Source of the DNA: Gemmataceae bacterium
GTDB taxonomy: Bacteria; Planctomycetota; Planctomycetia; Gemmatales; Gemmataceae
DNA: 29,087 bases
Assembly (NCBI GenBank): GCA_050248575.1
Contig: JBFWSD010000001.1
Coordinates: 1-29,087 of the forward strand
Direction: 5' to 3'
Shown here: positions 4,207 to 21,545 of the stretch, one piece after another
Numbering within the stretch: the stretch's first letter is position 1
Layout: each line of letters opens with the position of its first letter
Notes under the pieces: generated by a model
What the model was told of the DNA's origin: nothing
The model's database searches: none
Seen by the model: only the letters and a program-made list of their open reading frames with translations
Translations under genes and position numbers: made by a program

Positions 4207-6726
4207 ATGAAACGGCTTACCTGCATTCTCTTCGTCTTCGCCCTGGCAACCCCTGCCCGGGCCGAGGCTCCCGAGCGCATTTCGGTCCAGCCCGACAAGG
4301 TGCTCCTCGACGGCATCGATGACGGCAGCCAGCTCGTCGTCACCGGGCACTTTGCCGGCGACAAACAGCAAGACCTGACGGCGCGAGCCACTTTTCGGGG
4401 GGCCGATGCCAGGGTCGCCACGGTCGATGAGCGCGGCCTGGTCACGCCGGTCAGCGACGGCCAGACGCAGATCATCATCGAGGCCGCGGGCAAGTCGTTC
4501 CCGCTGTCGGTCAAGGTGTCGGGCACCAAGGGGGACCGGCCCGTCAACTTCGTCAATGAAGTGATCCCGGTCCTGACCAAGCTGGGCTGCAACACGGGAG
4601 GCTGTCACGGCAAGGCCGACGGGCAGAACGGCTTCAAGCTGTCGCTGCTCGGCTTCGATCCCAAGCTCGACTACAACGCCCTGGTGCGTGAAGGGCGGGG
4701 CCGCCGCGTCATGCCCTCCGCTCCTGCACTCAGCCTGCTGCTGGTCAAGCCCGTAGGGGCGATCGGCCACGGCGGCGGCAAGCTGCTCCAGCCCGACTCG
4801 GCCGAGTATCGCCTCTTGCTGCGCTGGATCGCGGGCGGCACCCCGTATGGCAAGCCCGACGATCCACGCATTGTCCGGCTGTCGGTCTTCCCGGAAAAGC
4901 GGACCCTCGAGTTGAAGGGCAGCCAGCAACTCGCGGTGACGGCCCACTTCAGCGATGGCTCGGCCCGCGACGTCACGCCCCGCGCCGAGTTCCGCACCAA
5001 CGATGAAGAGATGATCGTGGTGGATGAGCGCGGGCAGGTGCAAGCCCTCGAACGCACCGGCGCCGGCTCGATCATGATCCGCTACCAGGGGCTGGTCACC
5101 CTGTTCCGGGCGACCATGCCGCAGGAGTTGCCCGCGGACAAGCTGGTCTTGCCCGCGGCGCGGAACTTCATCGATGAGCATGTCTTCAAGCGGCTGCGCG
5201 AGCTGGGAGTGCCCGCTTCGGAACTGTGCAGCGACGGCGAGTTCCTCCGCCGCGCCTCGCTCGATATCACGGGCACACTGCCCACGGCGGAAGAGGCGGC
5301 CCGGTTCATTGCCGACCCCGATCCGAAGAAGCGCGACAAGCTCATCGACACGCTGCTGAGCAAGCCGGAATACGCGGCCTACTTCACGCTCAAGTGGGGC
5401 GACATCCTCCGCCTCAAGGGTGGCGGCCGCGACAACAAGCCGCGCGGCGGCAAGGATGCCCATCTCGATACCCCCGCCGATCGCGCCGATGCCTTCCAGG
5501 CCTGGATCCGCCAGAGCCTGGCCGACAACATGCCCTACGATCAGTTCGTGCGGGCCGTGATCACCACCGACGGCCACACTTCGGGCAAGGAAGCCAGGCC
5601 GCAGATCTTGTGGTATCTCGAGCTGAAGACCCCCGAGCAACTCGTGGATGACACGGCCCAGGCGTTTCTGGGCACGCGCATCCAGTGTGCCCGCTGCCAT
5701 CATCATCCGTTCGAGAAATGGAGCCAGGAAGACTACTGGGGCCTGGCCGGCTTCTATGGCCGGGTGCAATGGCTGGCGCCGAACAAGGAGGGCAAGTTCG
5801 GCCCGACACGGGAATCGCCCCGCCTTGGACAGATGGTCAGCTATAACGCCGAAGGCAAGCTCACCGATCCGCAGGGCCGCGTCTTCGACAAGCCTTGTGT
5901 GCTGGACGGGCCGCCCCTCGATATCGCCGCCAAGGACGATCCCCGCCATCAGCTCGTTGACTGGATGGCCCGGCCCGACAATCCGTACTTTGCCCGCACG
6001 CTGGTCAACCGCTACTGGGGGCACTTCTTTGCCCGCGGCATCGTCGAGCCGCTCGACGACCTGCGCGTGACCAATCCGCCCACGAACCCTGAGTTGCTCG
6101 ACGCCCTGGCCCGCGATTTCGTCGCGCACAAGTTCGATCTGAAGCACGTGATCCGGACGATCTGCACGAGTGCCACGTATCAGCTCAGCTGCCAGTCGAA
6201 CGAACACAACCGCCAGGATGTGAGGAACCACGCCTGGTTCGTGCCGCGGCGGATGTCGGCCGAGGTGCTGCTCGATGCGATCGACAAGGTGACGGACAGC
6301 CCGACCGAGTTCACGGCCATGGGGGGCAAGAAGTTCCCGGCTGGCACGCGGGCCATCGATCTGCCCGACGTGTTCGTGTCGTCCTACTTCCTGTCGGTAT
6401 TTGGCAAGCCGAAGCGCGACTCGGCCTGCGAATGCGAGCGCGAGACGAGCACGACCCTTGCCCAGCGCGCCCACCTGTTGAACTCGGCGCAGATCCGGCA
6501 GAAGCTGTCAGCCCGGGCCGCCAAGCTGAAGGCGGACGAGCGGCCCGACCTGGACAAGATCAAGGAGGTCTACCTGGGCTTCTTTGCCCGCGAGCCGAAC
6601 GCGGCAGAAGTGGCCCTGGTGCAGAAGTACCTGGCCAACAAGAAAGATGCCCGCGATCCCAGCGAGGGCTGGGGCGATGTCCTCTGGGCCCTGCTGAACA
6701 GCAAGGAATTCTCGTTCAACCATTAG
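4207..6726 (+). CDS. Secreted DUF1549/DUF1553 protein with Ig-like domains
   Basis: Signal peptide MKRLTCILFVFALATPARA. Two Ig-like repeats (QLVVTGHF / QLAVTAHF), GCNTGGCHG, NFIDEHV...FLRRASLDITG (DUF1549), IQCARCHHHPFEKW, and NPYFARTLVNRYW...PTNPELLDALA (DUF1553). 839 aa. Confidence 0.88.
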   Translation: MKRLTCILFVFALATPARAEAPERISVQPDKVLLDGIDDGSQLVVTGHFAGDKQQDLTARATFRGADARVATVDERGLVTPVSDGQTQIIIEAAGKSFPLSVKVSGTKGDRPVNFVNEVIPVLTKLGCNTGGCHGKADGQNGFKLSLLGFDPKLDYNALVREGRGRRVMPSAPALSLLLVKPVGAIGHGGGKLLQPDSAEYRLLLRWIAGGTPYGKPDDPRIVRLSVFPEKRTLELKGSQQLAVTAHFSDGSARDVTPRAEFRTNDEEMIVVDERGQVQALERTGAGSIMIRYQGLVTLFRATMPQELPADKLVLPAARNFIDEHVFKRLRELGVPASELCSDGEFLRRASLDITGTLPTAEEAARFIADPDPKKRDKLIDTLLSKPEYAAYFTLKWGDILRLKGGGRDNKPRGGKDAHLDTPADRADAFQAWIRQSLADNMPYDQFVRAVITTDGHTSGKEARPQILWYLELKTPEQLVDDTAQAFLGTRIQCARCHHHPFEKWSQEDYWGLAGFYGRVQWLAPNKEGKFGPTRESPRLGQMVSYNAEGKLTDPQGRVFDKPCVLDGPPLDIAAKDDPRHQLVDWMARPDNPYFARTLVNRYWGHFFARGIVEPLDDLRVTNPPTNPELLDALARDFVAHKFDLKHVIRTICTSATYQLSCQSNEHNRQDVRNHAWFVPRRMSAEVLLDAIDKVTDSPTEFTAMGGKKFPAGTRAIDLPDVFVSSYFLSVFGKPKRDSACECERETSTTLAQRAHLLNSAQIRQKLSARAAKLKADERPDLDKIKEVYLGFFAREPNAAEVALVQKYLANKKDARDPSEGWGDVLWALLNSKEFSFNH

Positions 6727-6786: not shown

Positions 6787-8202
6787 ATGAAAACCGCGAC
6801 GCTATCCGGCTGCTTCCTGCTCGCACTGGGTTGCTTGCTGAATGCGAGCCAGGCGGTGTCGGCCGAGGACGTTTCCTATGCCGAGGTGCAGGCGATCCTG
6901 AAGGCACGCTGCCTGGTGTGCCATTCGGGCAATGTGAAGAAAGGCGACCTTGACCTGGGCTCCTACGACGGGCTGATGAAAGGGGGCCGCCGCGGACCGG
7001 CCCTCGTCGCCGGCAAGTCAGCCGACAGCTTGCTCTTCAAGTTGATCAGCAAGGTCGACAAGCCGAGCATGCCGCCGCGCAAGGAAGACCCCTTGAACGA
7101 AGCGCAGGTGGCGATCATTCAGAAGTGGATCGACCAGGGGGCCAGGCCGTCTTCGACCCCCCAGACGGCCGACCGCACCGGCGTTCGCGTGCCGGCGGCA
7201 ACGGTCCAGTTCGTGCGTGCCCTCGCGCTGGGTACCGACTTCATTGCGGTTGCCCGCGCCAACCAGGTCGTGCTGCACGACCTCAAGACCGGCACGCCGC
7301 GCCGCCCCCTGGTCGATCCACGCCTGCAAGACAAGGAAGGCAAGGCAGTGGCTGCCGCCCACCTGGGCGTGGTCGAGAGTTTGGCCCTCGATCCCACGGG
7401 CAAGCTGCTTGCCAGTGGCAGTTTTCGCGAGGCCGTCGTGTGGGATCCGGCGGGCGGCGCCATCAAGCACCGGCTGACGGGCTTTGCCGATCGCGTGGTG
7501 GCCCTGGCTTTTTCACGCGACGGCAAGCTCCTGGCCGTCGGTGGCGGCACGCCCACGGTGGCGGGCACGATCGACCTCTTCGACACGGCCAGCGGCTCGA
7601 AGGTATCCAGCATCCCGCAAGCTCACACCGATACGGTGCTGGGCCTGTGCTTCAGCCCGGACGGCAAGAACATCGCCAGCGCCGGCGCGGACCTGGCCGT
7701 GCGCATCCATGAGGTCGCAACGGGCAAGTTCCTCAAGAAGCTCGAAGGCCACAGCCATCATGTGCTCGACGTGAGCTGGAGCGGCGACGGCAAGTTCCTG
7801 GCCAGCGCCGGCATCGACAAGCAAATCCGCTTCTGGGACGTGGCGACGGGGGAAGAACTGAAGCGGATCAATCGCGGTGGCGGGCAACTCACGATCATGT
7901 CGGTCAAACACGACGAGCCCCCTTGCCGCGTGCGTTTCATCGGCGACGGCCGGCAACTGGTCAGCGCCGGGGCTCAGCAGCCCGTGCGGATTCTGTTACT
8001 CGAAGAGATCACCAAGGCCAGCAACTACTACACACCTTACTTTCAGCCCAAGCAACTCCGCAGCTTCGGCGGCACGGACGATTATCTCTACGCGGTGGAC
8101 GTGAGTGCCGACGGCAACCTGGTGGCCGCCGGCGGCGAGAACGGCGTCGTGTATCTCTACGATGCACAGAAGGGGACGCTGATCTACAGAATAGCAGATT
8201 GA
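6787..8202 (+). CDS. Planctomycete cytochrome c domain plus WD40-repeat protein
   Basis: Signal peptide, then CLVCHSG heme motif, GDLDLGSYDGLMKGG...SMPP (PSCyt1-like), followed by WD40 repeats (AHTDTVLGLCFSPDG, GHSHHVLDVSWSGDG). 471 aa. Confidence 0.85.
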   Translation: MKTATLSGCFLLALGCLLNASQAVSAEDVSYAEVQAILKARCLVCHSGNVKKGDLDLGSYDGLMKGGRRGPALVAGKSADSLLFKLISKVDKPSMPPRKEDPLNEAQVAIIQKWIDQGARPSSTPQTADRTGVRVPAATVQFVRALALGTDFIAVARANQVVLHDLKTGTPRRPLVDPRLQDKEGKAVAAAHLGVVESLALDPTGKLLASGSFREAVVWDPAGGAIKHRLTGFADRVVALAFSRDGKLLAVGGGTPTVAGTIDLFDTASGSKVSSIPQAHTDTVLGLCFSPDGKNIASAGADLAVRIHEVATGKFLKKLEGHSHHVLDVSWSGDGKFLASAGIDKQIRFWDVATGEELKRINRGGGQLTIMSVKHDEPPCRVRFIGDGRQLVSAGAQQPVRILLLEEITKASNYYTPYFQPKQLRSFGGTDDYLYAVDVSADGNLVAAGGENGVVYLYDAQKGTLIYRIAD

Positions 8203-8203
8203 T

Positions 8204-8240
8204 GATTGCCGATTGCAGATCAAGTCTGCAATCGGCAATC
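8204..8240. repeat. Perfect 16-bp inverted repeat built from heptamers; possible terminator or processing hairpin
   Basis: GATTGCCGATTGCAGA-TCAAG-TCTGCAATCGGCAATC directly after the stop codon. No U-tract follows. Confidence 0.8.
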
Positions 8241-8267
8241 GGAAATGTGCAATCCATGAATCCCCTC

Positions 8268-8296
8268 TTGACAGGTCCTGATGCCACAACTACGTT
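8268..8296 (+). promoter_or_regulatory. Sigma70-type promoter for the rpsJ operon
   Basis: TTGACA (8268-8273), 17-nt spacer, TACGTT (8291-8296), about 55 nt upstream of rpsJ. Confidence 0.7.
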
Positions 8297-8349
8297 ATCA
8301 TCTTTCTACTTTTTCGCAGGATTTGCGTGTGTGAACGCGAGGAGGGTTG

Positions 8350-8685
8350 GTGGCAGGGCTGAGCGAGCGAATCAGGATTCGAATGGAAGCCTACGATCAC
8401 GAGATCCTGGACCGGACGGCGCATGAGATCGTCGACACGGCCCAGCGCACGGGAGCGATCGTGCACGGCCCGATTCCGTTGCCAACGCGTATCGAGCGTT
8501 ACACGGTGTTGCGGAGCCCGCATATCGATCGCAAATCGCGCGAGCAATTCGAGATTCGTACGCACAAGAGGCTGGTGGACATCTTGCAGCCGACCGGCAA
8601 GACGATCGAGGCCCTCAACAAAGGGCTGAGCTTGCCTCCCGGTGTGGACATCAAGATCCGGGTGCTGTCTGCCGCGGGAAATTGA
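8350..8685 (+). CDS. rpsJ: 30S ribosomal protein S10
   Basis: [16 protein letters not shown]...GPIPLPT...[27 protein letters not shown] start after AGGAGG. Confidence 0.97.
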
Positions 8686-8891
8686 GCTTGAGACCCTCAA
8701 GTGAGCCCTTCCTCCTCACGCCGCTCTCCATAAGATAATGAGCCGACACGTGCCCGCCCCATCGGGCTACGTGCCGCTCGCGATTACCGCAAAACTGACG
8801 CATAACCGCACGGATGCCAGGGATACGCCCGGCGGGGCCTAGCCAAGCCGGGACGGATGTCTGATTGATTCTCGGTTCGGGAGTAACTGAC

Positions 8892-9566
8892 GTGGCCGCT
8901 GAAGAAAAAACGCCAGAACAAGGGCCGGTCAAGGTCGACGTGTTCAACGGGCAGGGCGAGACGGTCGGCACCGTCGAGATCGACCCCGCCGACTTCGGGG
9001 GCAAGATCAACAAGCAGCTTCTTCATGATGTGGTGCTGATGCACCTGGCCAACCAGCGGGCCGGCACCCATTCGACGCTTCGCCGCGGTGAAGTGGCGGG
9101 CTCCACCAAGAAGCTGTTCCGGCAGAAGGGGACGGGGCGCGCTCGAGCCGGTACCCGCCGCACCAACAAACGGCGCGGCGGCGGCACCGCCAAGGGCCCC
9201 AAGCCGCGCGATTATGAATACCATCTGCCCAAGAAGGCCGTCCGGGCCGCCACCCGCATGGCTCTCTTGAGCAAGGTGCTCGACAAGGAGTTGGTGGTCA
9301 TCGACGAGCTCGCCCTGGCAGAGATCAAGACCAAGAAGATGGCTGGCGTTCTCAAGGTTCTCAAGCTCGACAACACCACCTGCCTGATCGGCACCGCCGG
9401 GCAGGACGACAAGGTCTACAAGTCGGCCCGCAACCTGAAGGGCGTCGAGGTGTCGCCGGCCGCCCAGCTGAATGCGTACACGGTGTTGCAACACAAGAGG
9501 CTGCTGCTCACCAAGGCCGCCCTCGAAGAACTTCGCCAGAACAAGAAAGCCAAGGCGAAAGCCTGA
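8892..9566 (+). CDS. rplD: 50S ribosomal protein L4
   Basis: [32 protein letters not shown]...[17 protein letters not shown] start inferred after GGGAG. Confidence 0.96.
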
Positions 9567-9586: not shown

Positions 9587-9916
9587 ATGGCCAAGCCCAA
9601 TGAAACCAAGGTTCGCCGCAAGGACCGCGGGCCGAAGCTCGACCCGCATCAGGTCCTGCTCCAGCCCCTCGTTACCGAGAAGGGCACGCACCAGTTCACG
9701 CGGCACAACGCCTATCCGTTCCAGGTCAACCTGTGGGCGACCAAGGAGCAGATTCGCGATGCCGTGGAAGACATGTTCGGCGTGCGGGTCTTGAAGGTTC
9801 GTACGCAGAACCGCCTCGGCAAGACGCGCCGCTATCGCTTCCGCCTGGGCAAGCTGCCCAACTGGAAGAAGGCGATCGTCACCTTGCACGAGGAAGATCG
9901 CATTGAGTTCTTCTGA
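9587..9916 (+). CDS. rplW: 50S ribosomal protein L23
   Basis: PLVTEKG...YPFQVNLWATKEQIRDAVEDMFGVRVLKVRT...WKKAIVTL. Confidence 0.96.
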   Translation: MAKPNETKVRRKDRGPKLDPHQVLLQPLVTEKGTHQFTRHNAYPFQVNLWATKEQIRDAVEDMFGVRVLKVRTQNRLGKTRRYRFRLGKLPNWKKAIVTLHEEDRIEFF

Positions 9917-9962: not shown

Positions 9963-10817
9963 ATGGGTATTCGACACTACAAGCCGACCACTCCCGGGCG
10001 TCGCCAGGGCAGCGTCAGCGATTTTGCCGAGCTGACCGACCGCAAGAAGAAGCCCGAAAAGGGGCTGGTCAAGCCGCTCAAGAAGAAGGGCGGCCGCAAC
10101 AACCAGGGCGTCACCTGCACGCGCTTCCGGGGCGGCGGCCACAAGCGCATGTATCGCCTCATCGACTTCAAGCGCAACAAGGATGGTTCGTGGGCCGAGG
10201 TCGAGGCCATCGAGTACGATCCGAATCGTTCCACGCGTATTGCCCTCCTCAAGTACGAGGACGGCGAGAAGCGTTACGTGCTGGCCCCCGAAGGTTTGAA
10301 GGCCGGCGACAAGATCATCTCGGGCGAAGAGGTCGAGCCGCGCGTGGGCAACTGCATGCCGCTGCGCCGCATCCCGCTCGGCATGTCGATCCACAACGTG
10401 GAGATGCAGCCGGGCAAGGGGGGCCAGCTTTGCCGCTCGGCCGGCACCAGCGTGACGCTCACGGCCCGCGAAGGCCAGTGGGCCCAGATCACGCTCCCCT
10501 CGGGCGAAGTGCGGCGTATCAACTCGGAATGCCGCGCTACCATCGGCGCGCTGGGCAATGCCGACCACATGAACATCAAGATCGGCAAGGCGGGCCGCGT
10601 GCGCTGGAAGGGGCGACGGCCCCACAATCGCGGCGTGGCGATGAATCCGGTCAGCCATCCGATGGGGGGCGGCGAGGGCCGCACCTCGGGCGGCCGCCAT
10701 CCGTGCAGCCCGACCGGCGTGCTGGCCAAGGGCGGCAAGACGCGCAAGAAGCGGAAACCGTCGAACTCGGCGATCATTCGGCGGCGTCGGCCAGGCCCGC
10801 GTTACACGGCCCGCTGA
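9963..10817 (+). CDS. rplB: 50S ribosomal protein L2
   Basis: GGRNNQG...[16 protein letters not shown]...EYDPNRS...[17 protein letters not shown]. Confidence 0.98.
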
Positions 10818-10899: not shown

Positions 10900-11190
10900 A
10901 TGAGTCGTTCGTTGAAGAAGGGCCCGCACGTCGACCTGAGGCTGCTCGCCAAGGTCGAGAAGCAGGAACGATCGCCGCAGCGCGAGCCGATCAAGACCTG
11001 GTCGCGCGATTGCACGATCGTGCCCGACTTCATCGGCCACACCTTCCTGGTGCACAACGGCAAGTCGTTCATTAAGCTGTTCGTGACCGAGGACATGGTG
11101 GGGCATAAGCTGGGCGAGTTCGCCCCGACGCGGATCTTCAAGGGGCACTCGGGCGGCAAGAAGGCTGCCGCCGGCCCGCCTGGCAAGTAG
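10900..11190 (+). CDS. rpsS: 30S ribosomal protein S19
   Basis: [12 protein letters not shown]...IKTWSR...VHNGK...[13 protein letters not shown]. Confidence 0.98.
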
Positions 11191-11199
11191 GAAACACAA

Positions 11200-11271
11200 C
11201 CCGGGGTGGAGCAGTGGTAGCTCGCCAGGCTCATAACCTGGAGGTCGCAGGTTCAAATCCTGCCCCCGGAA
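11200..11271 (+). tRNA. tRNA-Met(CAT), initiator (fMet) type; CCA not encoded
   Basis: Cloverleaf: acceptor CCCGGGG/CCCCGGA with a C1:A72 mismatch, D arm GAGC-AGTGGTA-GCTC, anticodon arm CCAGG-CTCATAA-CCTGG, T arm GCAGG-TTCAAAT-CCTGC, discriminator A11271. Confidence 0.95.
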
Positions 11272-11322
11272 CTGAATGACGCAACGCCGGGTCGGGCCCG
11301 GCTTCATGTGGAGAATGACAGG

Positions 11323-11679
11323 ATGGCTGTCCAGTACAAGGCCAAGCATCGGTTTGCCGACATGTCGGCGCGGAAAATCCGTCCGGTCGCGGCCATGATC
11401 CGAGGCCGTCGCGCCGACGAGGCGCTCGAGCTGTTGCGCTACTTGCCCAACAAGAGTGCCAGGCTGCTCGAGCAGGTCTTGAAGAGCGCGCTGGGCAATG
11501 CCGAAGACAGGGGCGCCCGGCACATCGACGATCTGGTCGTCGTCGAGTCGCGCGTCGACGGCGGGCCGATGCTCAAGCGCATCATGCCGCGGGCGCGCGG
11601 CACTGCCTACCTGATCCAGCGCCGCCTGTCGCACATCCACATCACCGTGGCCGACCCCCACGCCGAGGAAGAGGGATGA
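11323..11679 (+). CDS. rplV: 50S ribosomal protein L22
   Basis: MSARKIRPVAAMIRG...KVLKSA-like motif QVLKSALGNAE...GPMLKRIMPRARG...HIHITV. ATG 11323 after GGAG. Confidence 0.96.
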   Translation: MAVQYKAKHRFADMSARKIRPVAAMIRGRRADEALELLRYLPNKSARLLEQVLKSALGNAEDRGARHIDDLVVVESRVDGGPMLKRIMPRARGTAYLIQRRLSHIHITVADPHAEEEG

Positions 11680-11774
11680 GACGTCGGCCCGCACTGCCTT
11701 GACGCCATGCGGGCAGCACCCGGGACTGCGAAACCGTTCGTTGTCCCCGAGCGACTATTTGAGTTGAGGAATCC

Positions 11775-12473
11775 ATGGGGCAGAAAGTCAGACCTACCGG
11801 CTTCCGCGTCGGCGTGATGTTCGACTGGTTCAGCCAGTGGTACGCGACCAAGCACGACTTCGCCGAACTGCTGGTGGAAGACACCAAGATCCGCCACTAC
11901 ATCAAGAAGCGTTACGCCCGTTCGGGCATCTCGCGCATCCGCATTGATCGCACGCGTGAGAAGGTCGTCGTCTACATCTACTCGAACCGCGTCGGCATGA
12001 TCATCGGCAAGAAGGGGCAGGAAGTCGACAAGCTGACCAAGGATCTGGAAGACCTGACCCATCGCCACATCGAAGTGAAGACGATGGAAGTGGCCCGCCC
12101 GGAAGTCGACCCGCAGCTGGTCGCCGAGGACATCGCCGAGCAGCTCGAGAAGCGGGCCAGCTTCCGCCGCACCATGAAGCGGACCATCGATCAGACGATG
12201 GAAGCGGGGGCCAAGGGTGTGAAGATACAGATGTCGGGGCGGCTCGGCGGCGCTGAAATGGCCCGGCAGGAAACCGCCATGGCGGGCAGCATTCCACTGT
12301 CCACCTTGCGCGCCAAAGTGGAATACGGCTTTGCCGAGGCGGCCACCGCCCAGGGGCACATCGGCATCAAGGTCTGGATCAATAACGGGGATTACCTCGA
12401 GGAGAGCAGCGATGCCGCTCATGCCCAAACGAGTAAAGTACCGAAAAAGCCAGCGCGGCAAAATAAAAGGTAA
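11775..12473 (+). CDS. rpsC: 30S ribosomal protein S3
   Basis: MGQKVRPTGFRVG...GMIIGKKGQEV...SGRLGGAEMARQE...PLSTLRAKVEY...GHIGIKVWI. Confidence 0.97.
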   Translation: MGQKVRPTGFRVGVMFDWFSQWYATKHDFAELLVEDTKIRHYIKKRYARSGISRIRIDRTREKVVVYIYSNRVGMIIGKKGQEVDKLTKDLEDLTHRHIEVKTMEVARPEVDPQLVAEDIAEQLEKRASFRRTMKRTIDQTMEAGAKGVKIQMSGRLGGAEMARQETAMAGSIPLSTLRAKVEYGFAEAATAQGHIGIKVWINNGDYLEESSDAAHAQTSKVPKKPARQNKR

Positions 12474-12831
12474 TGCCTCGCGCGGCAACAAGGTATCGCT
12501 CGGTGAGTTCGGCTTGCAGGCCCTCGAAGGGGGCTGGCTCAGCGCCGAATGCATCGAGGCGGGCCGTATCACCGCCACCCACTCCGTGCGCGGCGAGGGC
12601 CGGCTCTACATCCGCGTTTTCCCGCACAAGTCGGTGACCAGCATTCCCCTCGAAACCCGCATGGGCAAGGGGAAGGGGGAGCCGGAATACTGGGCCGCGG
12701 TGGTGCGGCCCGGCATGATCCTGTTCGAGATCGCCGGTCTGCCCGAGGCGGCGGCCCGCGATTGCCTGGCCCGCGTGGCCTACAAGATGCCGTTCAAGTG
12801 CCGCTTTGTCGGCCGGCGCCCGAACGTGTAA
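12412..12831 (+). CDS. rplP: 50S ribosomal protein L16
   Basis: MPLMPKRVKYRKSQRG...RVFPHKSVT...RMGKGKGEPEYW. AGGAG RBS at 12400-12404. Confidence 0.97.
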   Translation: MPLMPKRVKYRKSQRGKIKGNASRGNKVSLGEFGLQALEGGWLSAECIEAGRITATHSVRGEGRLYIRVFPHKSVTSIPLETRMGKGKGEPEYWAAVVRPGMILFEIAGLPEAAARDCLARVAYKMPFKCRFVGRRPNV

Positions 12832-12847
12832 CCGGGCGGAGGAGCAC

Positions 12848-13051
12848 ATGAAGTCTTCAGAATATCGCGGCATGGGTGACGAGCAGCTCGCCCTGGCCCT
12901 CAAGGAACTGGAGAAGAACCTGTTCCACCTGCGCTTCCAGTCCGCCACCGAGCGGCTGGAAACGCCGAGCGAGATCCGCAAGGCCCGGCGCGAGATCGCC
13001 CGCATCAAGACCATCCAGCGCGAGAAAGTGCTCGCGGCCCAGAAAAAGTAG
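12848..13051 (+). CDS. rpmC: 50S ribosomal protein L29
   Basis: ELEKNLFHLRFQSATERLETPSEIRKARREIARIKTI; expected position after rplP. Confidence 0.95.
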   Translation: MKSSEYRGMGDEQLALALKELEKNLFHLRFQSATERLETPSEIRKARREIARIKTIQREKVLAAQKK

Positions 13052-13098
13052 CATCGGTTCGTCACCAGGAATGAGACATTAGGCATTAGGGAATAGTG

Positions 13099-13407
13099 AT
13101 GTCCGCTCACGAACGAGGCAAGCGACGGGTTGCGGTTGGCGTGGTAACCAGCGACAAGATGGACAAGACCCGCCGGGTCGAGATTCATCGGCTCGTCAAG
13201 CATCCGGTCTATGGCAAGTACATTCGCCGGCGGACCATCTGCTACACCCACGATGAAAAGAACGAGTCCCGTGCGGGCGACACGGTCGAGATCATGGAAA
13301 CCAGGCCGATGTCCAAGATGAAGACGTGGCGGCTGGTGCGCGTGGTCACCAAGGCCCCCGAGGCGGCGGCAACCGCCGACGAGCAAGGCGAACGGGCCCA
13401 GGCTTGA
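13099..13407 (+). CDS. rpsQ: 30S ribosomal protein S17
   Basis: [11 protein letters not shown]...[10 protein letters not shown]...HDEKNE...[20 protein letters not shown]. Confidence 0.97.
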
Positions 13408-17028: not shown

Positions 17029-17035
17029 CGCAGCG

Positions 17036-17052
17036 GAGAAGCCGAGCTTCTC
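17036..17052. repeat. REP-like palindrome, GAGAAGC-N-GCTTCTC family
   Basis: GAGAAGC-CGA-GCTTCTC in the rpsE-rplO spacer. Confidence 0.65.
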
Positions 17053-17064
17053 GTGGAGTGAGCA

Positions 17065-19949: not shown

Positions 19950-20855
19950 GTGCTCAGGTCATTGTTTCAAAAGGCACCGGAGCTGAAGTCGGCGCGAGAG
20001 GTCGCCTTGATGCGCGAGGCGGGCAAGGTCGTGGTGGAAGCGCTGCGCATTTGCCGCGCCATGGCCAAGCCGGGCACGCGCACCATCGACATCGACCGGG
20101 CTGTCGAAGAACACTACGCCCGCCACAACGCCTTGCCCCTCTTCAAGGGCTATCCCGGTCAGCATTGCCCGTTTCCCGCCGTCACCTGCCTGTCGATCAA
20201 CGAACAAGTGGTGCATGGCATTCCCGGCGCGCGTGAGCTGCGCGAGGGGGACCTCTTCAAGGTCGACACGGCCTGCAAGCTGAATGGCTGGTGCGCCGAT
20301 TCCGCCATGACCCTGATGATTGGCGAGGTGAGCCCGGAGAAACGCCGGCTGGTGAAGGTGGCCTACGAGGTGCTGGAGATTGCCCGCACGGAGCTGGGCC
20401 GCTGCAAGCGCTGGCACGAAGTCGCCTCACGCATGCAGCGGCATGCGGAGCAGAACGGCTTCACCATGGTGGAACAATACGTGGGGCACGGCATCGGCCG
20501 GGTCATGCACGAGAACCCGCAGGTGGCCAACTACGTGCCGCGCAACGCGCGCGAGGCCCGCAAGCAAGACTTCCGCCTCGAGCCCGGGCTGGTGCTGGCC
20601 ATCGAACCCATGCTCAACATGGGCCGCCACGATGTGAAGGTGCTGTCCGATCACTGGACCGTGGTGACGGCCAACGGGCTGCCCAGTGCCCACGTGGAAC
20701 ACACCTTCGCGCTCACTCCCGAAGGCGTGCTGGTCCTCACCGCGCCCGATATGCAGCCCGCCTCGCTCGATCCCTACGACCCCAGCAATCTGCCCGCCGC
20801 GGCCAGGGCCGTCGAGTCGAACGCGAACGGCGAGCAGTCGTCTCCGACTTCTTGA
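19950..20855 (+). CDS. map: Type I methionine aminopeptidase
   Basis: CLSINEQVVHGIP, DTAC...WCADSA, GHGIG...HENP, AIEPM, SAHVEHT. Confidence 0.95.
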   Translation: MLRSLFQKAPELKSAREVALMREAGKVVVEALRICRAMAKPGTRTIDIDRAVEEHYARHNALPLFKGYPGQHCPFPAVTCLSINEQVVHGIPGARELREGDLFKVDTACKLNGWCADSAMTLMIGEVSPEKRRLVKVAYEVLEIARTELGRCKRWHEVASRMQRHAEQNGFTMVEQYVGHGIGRVMHENPQVANYVPRNAREARKQDFRLEPGLVLAIEPMLNMGRHDVKVLSDHWTVVTANGLPSAHVEHTFALTPEGVLVLTAPDMQPASLDPYDPSNLPAAARAVESNANGEQSSPTS

Positions 20856-20867
20856 GCCGCGGCCAGC

Positions 20868-21545
20868 TCAAGTCCCCGCGCCGGGCAATACGCTCCGCAG
20901 CCACTGCCGCAGGTCCGCGACCAGCGACGGGCTGATCTCGTGGCCAATCCCGTAGCTCTTGTAAGCAGGCGTGTAGCCTTCCGTTTCCAGGAATGCGACC
21001 AGGTTCTTGCTCCATTCAAAGGGGACCAGCGGATCGTGGCGGCCGTGCGCCACGAAGACGGGCTGCGTGCGTTCTTCGGGCAGCGTCGCGCGCACAGCAT
21101 CGACCTGGCGCAATGAGCCGCTCAAGACCACCAGACCGGCAAACAGGTCGGGGCGGGGCAGCCCGTAGCGCAGGGTCATCGCGCCCCCTTGCGAGAAGCC
21201 AGCGAGCAAGGCCTGGCCGGGCGGCACTTCGAATCGATCCAGCACCTCGTTGACGAAGGGCTCGAGTTGATCCAGGGCATGACGGACTGCCCCCGGGCTC
21301 TCCTTGCCGCCGCGTTCGTACCAGGCTCGCATGGTCGGGTCGTCAGCCAGCGCCAGCGGAGCGTCGGGCAGCACGTAGACGTAGCCCGTGCGATCGATCA
21401 GTGGGGCCAGCCCGGCCAGGTCTTCCTTGTTGGCCCCGAAGCCATGCAGGAAGAAGATCAATGGGAAACGAGCCCCTTCTTCGAAGTGGTCGGGGGCCAC
21501 GGTCAAGTAGTCCAGGGTCGAGCTGCGCGCGTGCGTGGTCTTCAT
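20868..21545 (-). CDS. Alpha/beta hydrolase (phospholipase/carboxylesterase family)
   Basis: FFLHGFG, GFSQGG nucleophile elbow, HGRHDPLV (Asp) and GHEI (His), giving a complete catalytic triad. Confidence 0.88.
   Translation of the reverse strand: MKTTHARSSTLDYLTVAPDHFEEGARFPLIFFLHGFGANKEDLAGLAPLIDRTGYVYVLPDAPLALADDPTMRAWYERGGKESPGAVRHALDQLEPFVNEVLDRFEVPPGQALLAGFSQGGAMTLRYGLPRPDLFAGLVVLSGSLRQVDAVRATLPEERTQPVFVAHGRHDPLVPFEWSKNLVAFLETEGYTPAYKSYGIGHEISPSLVADLRQWLRSVLPGAGT

Follow-up and report, generated by a model that had tools for sequence, protein, structure and literature searches.

The canonical S10 operon of bacteria consists of rpsJ, rplC, rplD, rplW, rplB, rpsS, rplV, rpsC, rplP, rpmC, and rpsQ, and in Escherichia coli it is subject to autoregulation by L4 at the S10 leader. 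The string rpsJ-rplC-rplD is one of the most conserved in bacteria, and L3, the product of rplC, enters the assembly of the large ribosomal subunit at an early stage. A break in this string is known from the cyanobacteria and plastids, where rpsJ is detached from rplC-rplD and the genes behind them and lies joined to the str operon. S10 leaders of the E. coli type are described as narrowly distributed (PMC3616713). Brandis (2021; PMC8046335) reported single-gene 'deletions' from ribosomal protein operons that keep the operon cluster intact and by which the gene is 'effectively translocated', and argued that the gene is duplicated and the original copy then lost. The genomes of that work are from Gammaproteobacteria and Bacilli, and rplC is not mentioned in its main text.

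Here, we analysed a stretch of 29,087 nt (the window) from contig C1 of a Gemmataceae genome, in which 10 of the 11 canonical S10 operon genes are contiguous, on one strand and in the standard order. As in the canonical operon, a predicted promoter precedes rpsJ and the spc genes follow directly. Unlike in the canonical operon, slot 2 is without rplC, which is a lone gene at another locus, rpsS and rplV have a tRNA-Met gene between them, and no known leader RNA was detected in an Rfam search. The features of the window that matter here are the following.

8268-8306, + strand: predicted sigma-70-type promoter of the S10 cluster (TTGACA, 17 nt, TACGTT, 6 nt, TTTC; pattern match)
8350-8685, + strand: rpsJ (uS10; Pfam S10 PF00338, E 2.9e-35; NCBIfam rpsJ_bact TIGR01049, 138.8 bits against a cut-off of 72.75)
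8686-8891, + strand: rpsJ-rplD spacer (206 nt, non-coding, unique in the genome, not conserved; the slot of rplC in most bacteria)
8892-9566, + strand: rplD (uL4; Pfam L4 PF00573, E 3.7e-60; TIGR03953, 217.4 bits against a cut-off of 130.1)
9587-9916, + strand: rplW (ORF map; L23 by Pfam)
9963-10817, + strand: rplB (ORF map)
10900-11190, + strand: rpsS (ORF map)
11200-11272, + strand: tRNA-Met (CAT; Rfam tRNA, 69.1 bits; ARAGORN)
11308-13407, + strand: rplV, rpsC, rplP, rpmC, and rpsQ (the remaining S10 operon genes, in standard order)

The rpsJ start is the GTG at 8350, which has AGGAGG 4 nt before it and a position common to the relatives (the alternative is an in-frame TTG at 8347), and the rpsJ stop codon lies at 8683-8685. 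For rplD, translation probably begins with the GTG at 8892, which has GGGAG 8 nt 5' of it and is aligned with the starts in the relatives. tblastn mapping placed rplW, rplB, and rpsS in the identical order in 20 relatives, and rpsQ is followed, again in the standard order, by rplN, rplX, rplE, rpsN, rpsH, rplF, rplR, rpsE, rplO, secY, adk, and map. Given that all the remaining cluster genes are in their standard order, rplC is the sole S10 operon gene that is missing. The tRNA-Met gene begins 9 nt after rpsS and ends 35 nt before rplV; 17 of the fetched Gemmatales regions extend over this position, and 10 of them, from both families, have a tRNA-Met gene there. The gene is context only and stands apart from the rplC story. 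The break falls at the rpsJ/rplC junction, as in the cyanobacteria and plastids, but there rpsJ leaves and rplC heads the operon, whereas here rplC alone leaves and rpsJ joins rplD.

An earlier note on this DNA had pointed out that only 206 nt separate rpsJ and rplD and that no L3 can be recognised in them, and the ORF map, Pfam, and tblastn all bear this out. The spacer, at 206 nt or at 179 nt if the in-frame TTG at 8865 were the rplD start, is far too short for a uL3 of ~230 aa. Pfam assigned no family to the two small ORFs that overlap it, and permissive tblastn with the genome's own L3 as query found no L3 remnant in or near it, the sole match at the spacer (E = 100, minus strand) being noise. 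The possibility that the spacer holds a conserved RNA or regulatory element was considered and rejected: neither a consensus promoter nor a terminator was found in it, Rfam gave no credible match in the spacer or anywhere over 8200-9000, the fold z-score was only -1.99, and in alignments and blastn comparisons the spacer resembled neither those of 20 relatives nor any other part of the genome. The spacers of these relatives (n = 20) range from ~60 to 590 nt, cannot be aligned, and are unconserved even in the closest relatives. As the spacer shows no consensus promoter or terminator, no Rfam match, and no conservation, rplD is most simply read as co-transcribed with rpsJ. In several relatives (loci L097, L098, L099, and L100), the first ~60 nt after the rpsJ stop codon contain a GC-rich hairpin with a T-rich run behind it, for example CCCAGGCC…GGCCTGGGTTTTCTG, which is not in the window; in these loci the element may be an attenuator or a terminator between rpsJ and rplD.

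A whole-genome search with L3 profiles located the only rplC of the genome on contig C82, behind a predicted promoter.

G000:C82:3480-3516: predicted sigma-70-type promoter of rplC (TGGACG, 16 nt, CATAAT, 5 nt, TTTC; ends 50 nt before the ATG)
G000:C82:3567-4274: rplC (uL3, 235 aa)

The encoded protein scored 238.2 bits with TIGR03625, the bacterial uL3 equivalog (cut-off 142.9), in two stretches separated by an insertion after about residue 63, and 42.6 bits with Pfam PF00297 (cut-off 22). It is the single uL3 match and has no internal stops, in a genome that is 80% complete, so that a second copy is possible. The neighbours on the 5' side encode a HEAT-repeat protein and an unknown protein of 232 aa, and those on the 3' side, on the opposite strand, an esterase and a WGR-LRR protein. 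The search for uL3 elsewhere in the genome thus yielded a full-length copy with non-ribosomal flanks. Since rplC is encoded elsewhere, L3 is outside any control that acts on the S10 transcript. No rplC neighbours were shared across the Gemmatales genera, except that three loci have one downstream gene in common; because the flanks differ between genera, the original landing site cannot be reconstructed.

The earlier note had left two readings open, a clean relocation of rplC, which would need separate coordination of its expression, and a mis-assembly. If the assembly were at fault, an rplC segment would have been collapsed or deleted in contig C1 and the rplC of C82 would be the missing piece, a suspicion that is encouraged by the state of the genome, a fragmented metagenome-assembled genome (MAG) of 1327 contigs and 80% completeness. 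However, the C82 gene is embedded in unrelated genes, which extend over 3.5 kb upstream and over 7.5 kb downstream and include neither S10 nor L4. All of the 20 fetched S10 regions from the order, closed chromosomes included, have the same direct rpsJ-rplD junction and read S10-L4-L23-L2 without L3, continuing with S19-L22-S3 wherever the stretch reaches. In five relatives with both genes on a single contig, they lie 0.6-7.6 Mb apart: rplC and rpsJ are at 6.71 and 8.88 Mb in G202, at 2.09 and 2.70 Mb in G212, at 1.55 and 2.64 Mb in G232, at 0.25 and 7.86 Mb in G240, and at 6.18 and 4.64 Mb in G003. Contradicted by the identical junction in 20/20 regions and by the split in every scored genome of the order (see below), a mis-assembly is extremely improbable, and the relocation stands, with a single intact copy behind a conserved predicted promoter of its own.

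The split was then found to be the norm for the order, so it is real and not special to this genome. In a first sample of relatives (30 genomes from the two families and 24 genera of the order), rpsJ and rplD were neighbours in all 29 genomes that yielded both, their Pfam matches lying 170-681 nt apart, and each of the 28 genomes with an rplC match has this gene on a different contig or no less than 220 kb away. Altogether, both genes were located in 45 other genomes of the order, among them complete chromosomes, and rplC lies apart from rpsJ in 45/45; seven of those assemblies hold both genes on one contig, 0.22-7.6 Mb apart. In a sample of the class, 20/20 genomes of the order itself were split, whereas in the other orders rpsJ and rplC lie no more than ~1.1 kb from each other in 69 of 70 genomes; the remaining one has each of the two genes at the end of a contig and is unscorable. 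Among the named L3 loci, the nearest belong to MAGs labelled Gemmataceae or Gemmatales (some MAG labels being plainly wrong) and all have a lone rplC, whereas the loci named Pirellulales, Planctomycetaceae, Isosphaeraceae, and Brocadiaceae mostly read S10-L3-L4-L23. Given that the split is present in all Gemmatales scored and in none of the scorable genomes of the other orders, it is a shared derived character of Gemmatales within Planctomycetia. One MAG labelled Thermoguttaceae (L045:4792-6684) has a gap of ~900 nt between rpsJ and rplC and no L4 in the ~6 kb downstream of rplC.

This distribution also bears on the idea of a recent rearrangement private to the genome or its genus, for instance one mediated by the dispersed repeats that are abundant in this genome. 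Gene order in the Gemmataceae is indeed highly scrambled, but the split is common to both families and to the 45/45 other genomes with both genes located, and the spacer contains no repeat from elsewhere in the genome; such an event is therefore hardly credible. In practical terms, a missing rplC slot in a Gemmatales MAG should not be taken as a problem of assembly or completeness, and the rpsJ-rplD junction can serve as a simple gene-order marker that distinguishes Gemmatales from the rest of the class. We found no published description of an S10 operon without rplC in Gemmatales in the literature.

An identical gene map would be produced if a foreign rplC had arrived by horizontal gene transfer (HGT) and the native operon copy had then been deleted, and HGT is one source of the second copy considered by Brandis (2021; PMC8046335). 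In an L3 tree of 102 sequences, however, the lone copies of Gemmatales form two clades, one per family (SH-aLRT 99 and 95), both nested inside Planctomycetia. A tree of seven cluster proteins that excludes L3 recovers Gemmatales (support 100) as the sister group of Isosphaerales (support 98), whose gene order is canonical. The L3 tree agrees broadly with this tree, which argues that long-distance HGT is absent. The identity between the L3 of Gemmatales and that of Pirellulales/Planctomycetales, 50-60%, is also in line with the values for L4 (50-55%) and L23 (~60%) at the same loci. As the lone copies fall inside Planctomycetia, it was the native gene that moved, by vertical descent of L3 and with no distant foreign replacement; displacement by a foreign gene is unlikely, although a transfer from a very close relative is indistinguishable from an internal duplication.

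We therefore favour, with a probability of about 0.9, an ancestral relocation of rplC in Gemmatales that left the operon otherwise intact and the lone rplC with its own predicted promoter. In the history that we propose, the native rplC would have left the S10 operon in the common ancestor of Gemmatales (class Planctomycetia), the likeliest route being that a second copy arose by intrachromosomal duplication, or came from a close relative, and that the original was then lost. The operon would otherwise have remained intact (rpsJ-rplD-rplW-rplB-...), and this genome would have inherited that state. Duplication and loss is most likely by analogy with the known kind of event: as in the translocations of Brandis (2021; PMC8046335), one essential ribosomal protein gene is gone, the operon is otherwise preserved, an intact gene is present at another locus, the gene tree gives no sign of long-distance HGT, and duplication followed by loss is proposed. 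Unlike those cases, the event in Gemmatales is old and concerns a whole order, and it has recurred in further lineages of Planctomycetota. The expected intermediate with two copies of rplC was not found, each sampled genome of the order with a match having exactly one, and an old event need not leave such intermediates. Since the event is ancient, order-wide, and of a known kind, the split is ordinary for this genome; it is real, ancestral, and usual for the clade, and of mild interest for the clade and the phylum.

At present, rpsJ and rplD would probably be co-transcribed from the promoter at 8268-8306 across the fast-evolving 206-nt spacer, and rplC would be a single-gene unit on C82 transcribed from its own predicted promoter. 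The layout upstream of rpsJ (TTGAC[A/G]-N16-18-TAnnnT-N3-9-TT[T/C][C/G]) is present in 18 of 21 Gemmatales regions, compared with 0.3 in shuffled sequences; a stricter promoter scan (at least 9/12 consensus matches) did not return 8268-8306. The leader predicted upstream of rpsJ is only ~40 nt. Upstream of rplC, the layout of the C82 promoter occurs in 13 of 22 non-redundant Gemmatales loci (mean of 0.2 in shuffled sequences), and most of the other rplC loci have a -10-like box followed by TTCC. In this genome a common layout, namely a -35 box, 16-18 nt, a -10 box, ~5 nt, and TTTC, precedes rpsJ, rplC, rpmF, and rpsL. Strict promoter patterns gave 14 matches in the 7.6-Mb genome and 4 in the reversed-sequence control; the matches include rpsJ, rplC, rpmF, rpsL, and prs, and contigs C646 and C813 are among the sites. 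To judge from these patterns, rplC has its own conserved predicted promoter, which resembles those of other translation genes, and the shared layout is a plausible predicted route to coordinated expression of rplC. The fact that a whole order has a separate, single-gene rplC implies that equal-dose co-expression from one transcript is unnecessary for L3.

The loss of rplC from its slot is not limited to Gemmatales. We scored the adjacency of rpsJ and rplC in 150 genomes of the phylum Planctomycetota; the two genes were adjacent in 120 and separated in 28, and 2 genomes were unscorable. The 28 separated genomes represent 15 family-level groups outside Planctomycetia, and every sampled member of these groups is split. 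Ten of these split lineages were fetched, and in 9/10 rpsJ is directly followed by rplD and rplC is alone elsewhere; in the tenth, G082 (L116, G082:C1:1332108-1338392), rpsJ itself is alone, and neither L4 nor any further gene of the cluster lies less than 3 kb from it. Mapped onto the seven-protein tree, the trait calls for four changes, or for no fewer than three when only the well-supported branches are counted. Given at least three independent events on the tree, rplC has been removed from its slot repeatedly in one phylum. These recurrent excisions make the lineages comparable for how the balance of ribosomal proteins survives without operon linkage, the candidates to compare being a shared promoter layout and a dedicated leader.

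A candidate leader of the second kind was observed in other Gemmataceae, and its occurrence in about half of those sampled is the most interesting lead of this work. Of 45 Gemmataceae upstream regions, some of which are near-duplicates, 23 have the hexamer TGATGC 60-102 nt ahead of the rplC start codon, and two more have it at other distances; control hexamers occurred 0-2 times. The element is composed of a P1 helix (CCGACU/GGUCGG), a bulged GA, a UGC/GCA helix, and an inner hairpin whose sequence varies but whose pairing is preserved; a second hairpin abuts the ribosome-binding site. In three sequences an A-U pair of the P1 helix is exchanged for G-C. This structure was obtained both by folding single sequences and by RNAalifold with 13 sequences. 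Examples are the following.

L134:951-1040, - strand: rplC leader
L135:387-498, + strand: rplC leader
L143:387-498, + strand: rplC leader
L145:329-420, + strand: rplC leader
L149:957-1040, - strand: rplC leader
L018:3343-3432, + strand: rplC leader
L024:467-555, + strand: rplC leader
L004:1086-1155, + strand: rplC leader, variant form
L007:1079-1152, + strand: rplC leader, variant form
L014:4316-4385, + strand: rplC leader, variant form

The leader matched no Rfam family, and it was not found in the genome studied here, although the relocation is present. A loose IUPAC pattern of the leader gave hundreds of chance matches in the GC-rich genomes of the family and was uninformative. The idea that the leader mimics 23S rRNA was rejected, as the 23S rRNAs of this genome and of G202 contain neither UGAUGC nor UGAUGC...GCAGG. 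A different conserved motif (…GGAAGC…GGGUAA…hairpin…UUCCCGC…GGCGAC…) was observed in the rpsJ-rplC spacer of those named Pirellulales whose gene order is canonical, in the last ~100 nt before rplC (~5900-6000, with rplC starting at 6001), at the following loci.

L029, ~5900-6000: Pirellulales motif
L034, ~5900-6000: Pirellulales motif
L036, ~5900-6000: Pirellulales motif
L028, ~5900-6000: Pirellulales motif
L031, ~5900-6000: Pirellulales motif
L043, ~5900-6000: Pirellulales motif
L053, ~5900-6000: Pirellulales motif

This motif may be a leader RNA ahead of rplC within the operon, and the Gemmataceae and Pirellulales elements may both be control RNAs, either specific to L3 or acting at operon entry. 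A more far-reaching reading is that rplC is unusually prone to leave the S10 operon and may then gain dedicated control, the Gemmataceae leader being an undescribed L3-responsive autoregulatory RNA. We regard this as doubtful; if it were true, the leader would replace the operon-level feedback that L3 has lost.

Two further variations were observed in the ribosomal cluster of the window. The gap between rpsE and rplO is just 36 nt (17029-17064), so that rpmD (L30) is not in its usual slot; the absence of rpmD from this slot is a common variant. The cluster is also truncated at both ends (6787-8202 and 19950-21545 of the window): a cytochrome c-WD40 protein is encoded before rpsJ instead of tuf or fusA, and an opposite-strand esterase gene follows map in place of infA-rpmJ-rpsM-rpsK-rpsD-rpoA-rplQ. 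The spc and alpha operons are joined in all the Gammaproteobacteria and Bacilli genomes studied by Brandis (2021; PMC8046335).
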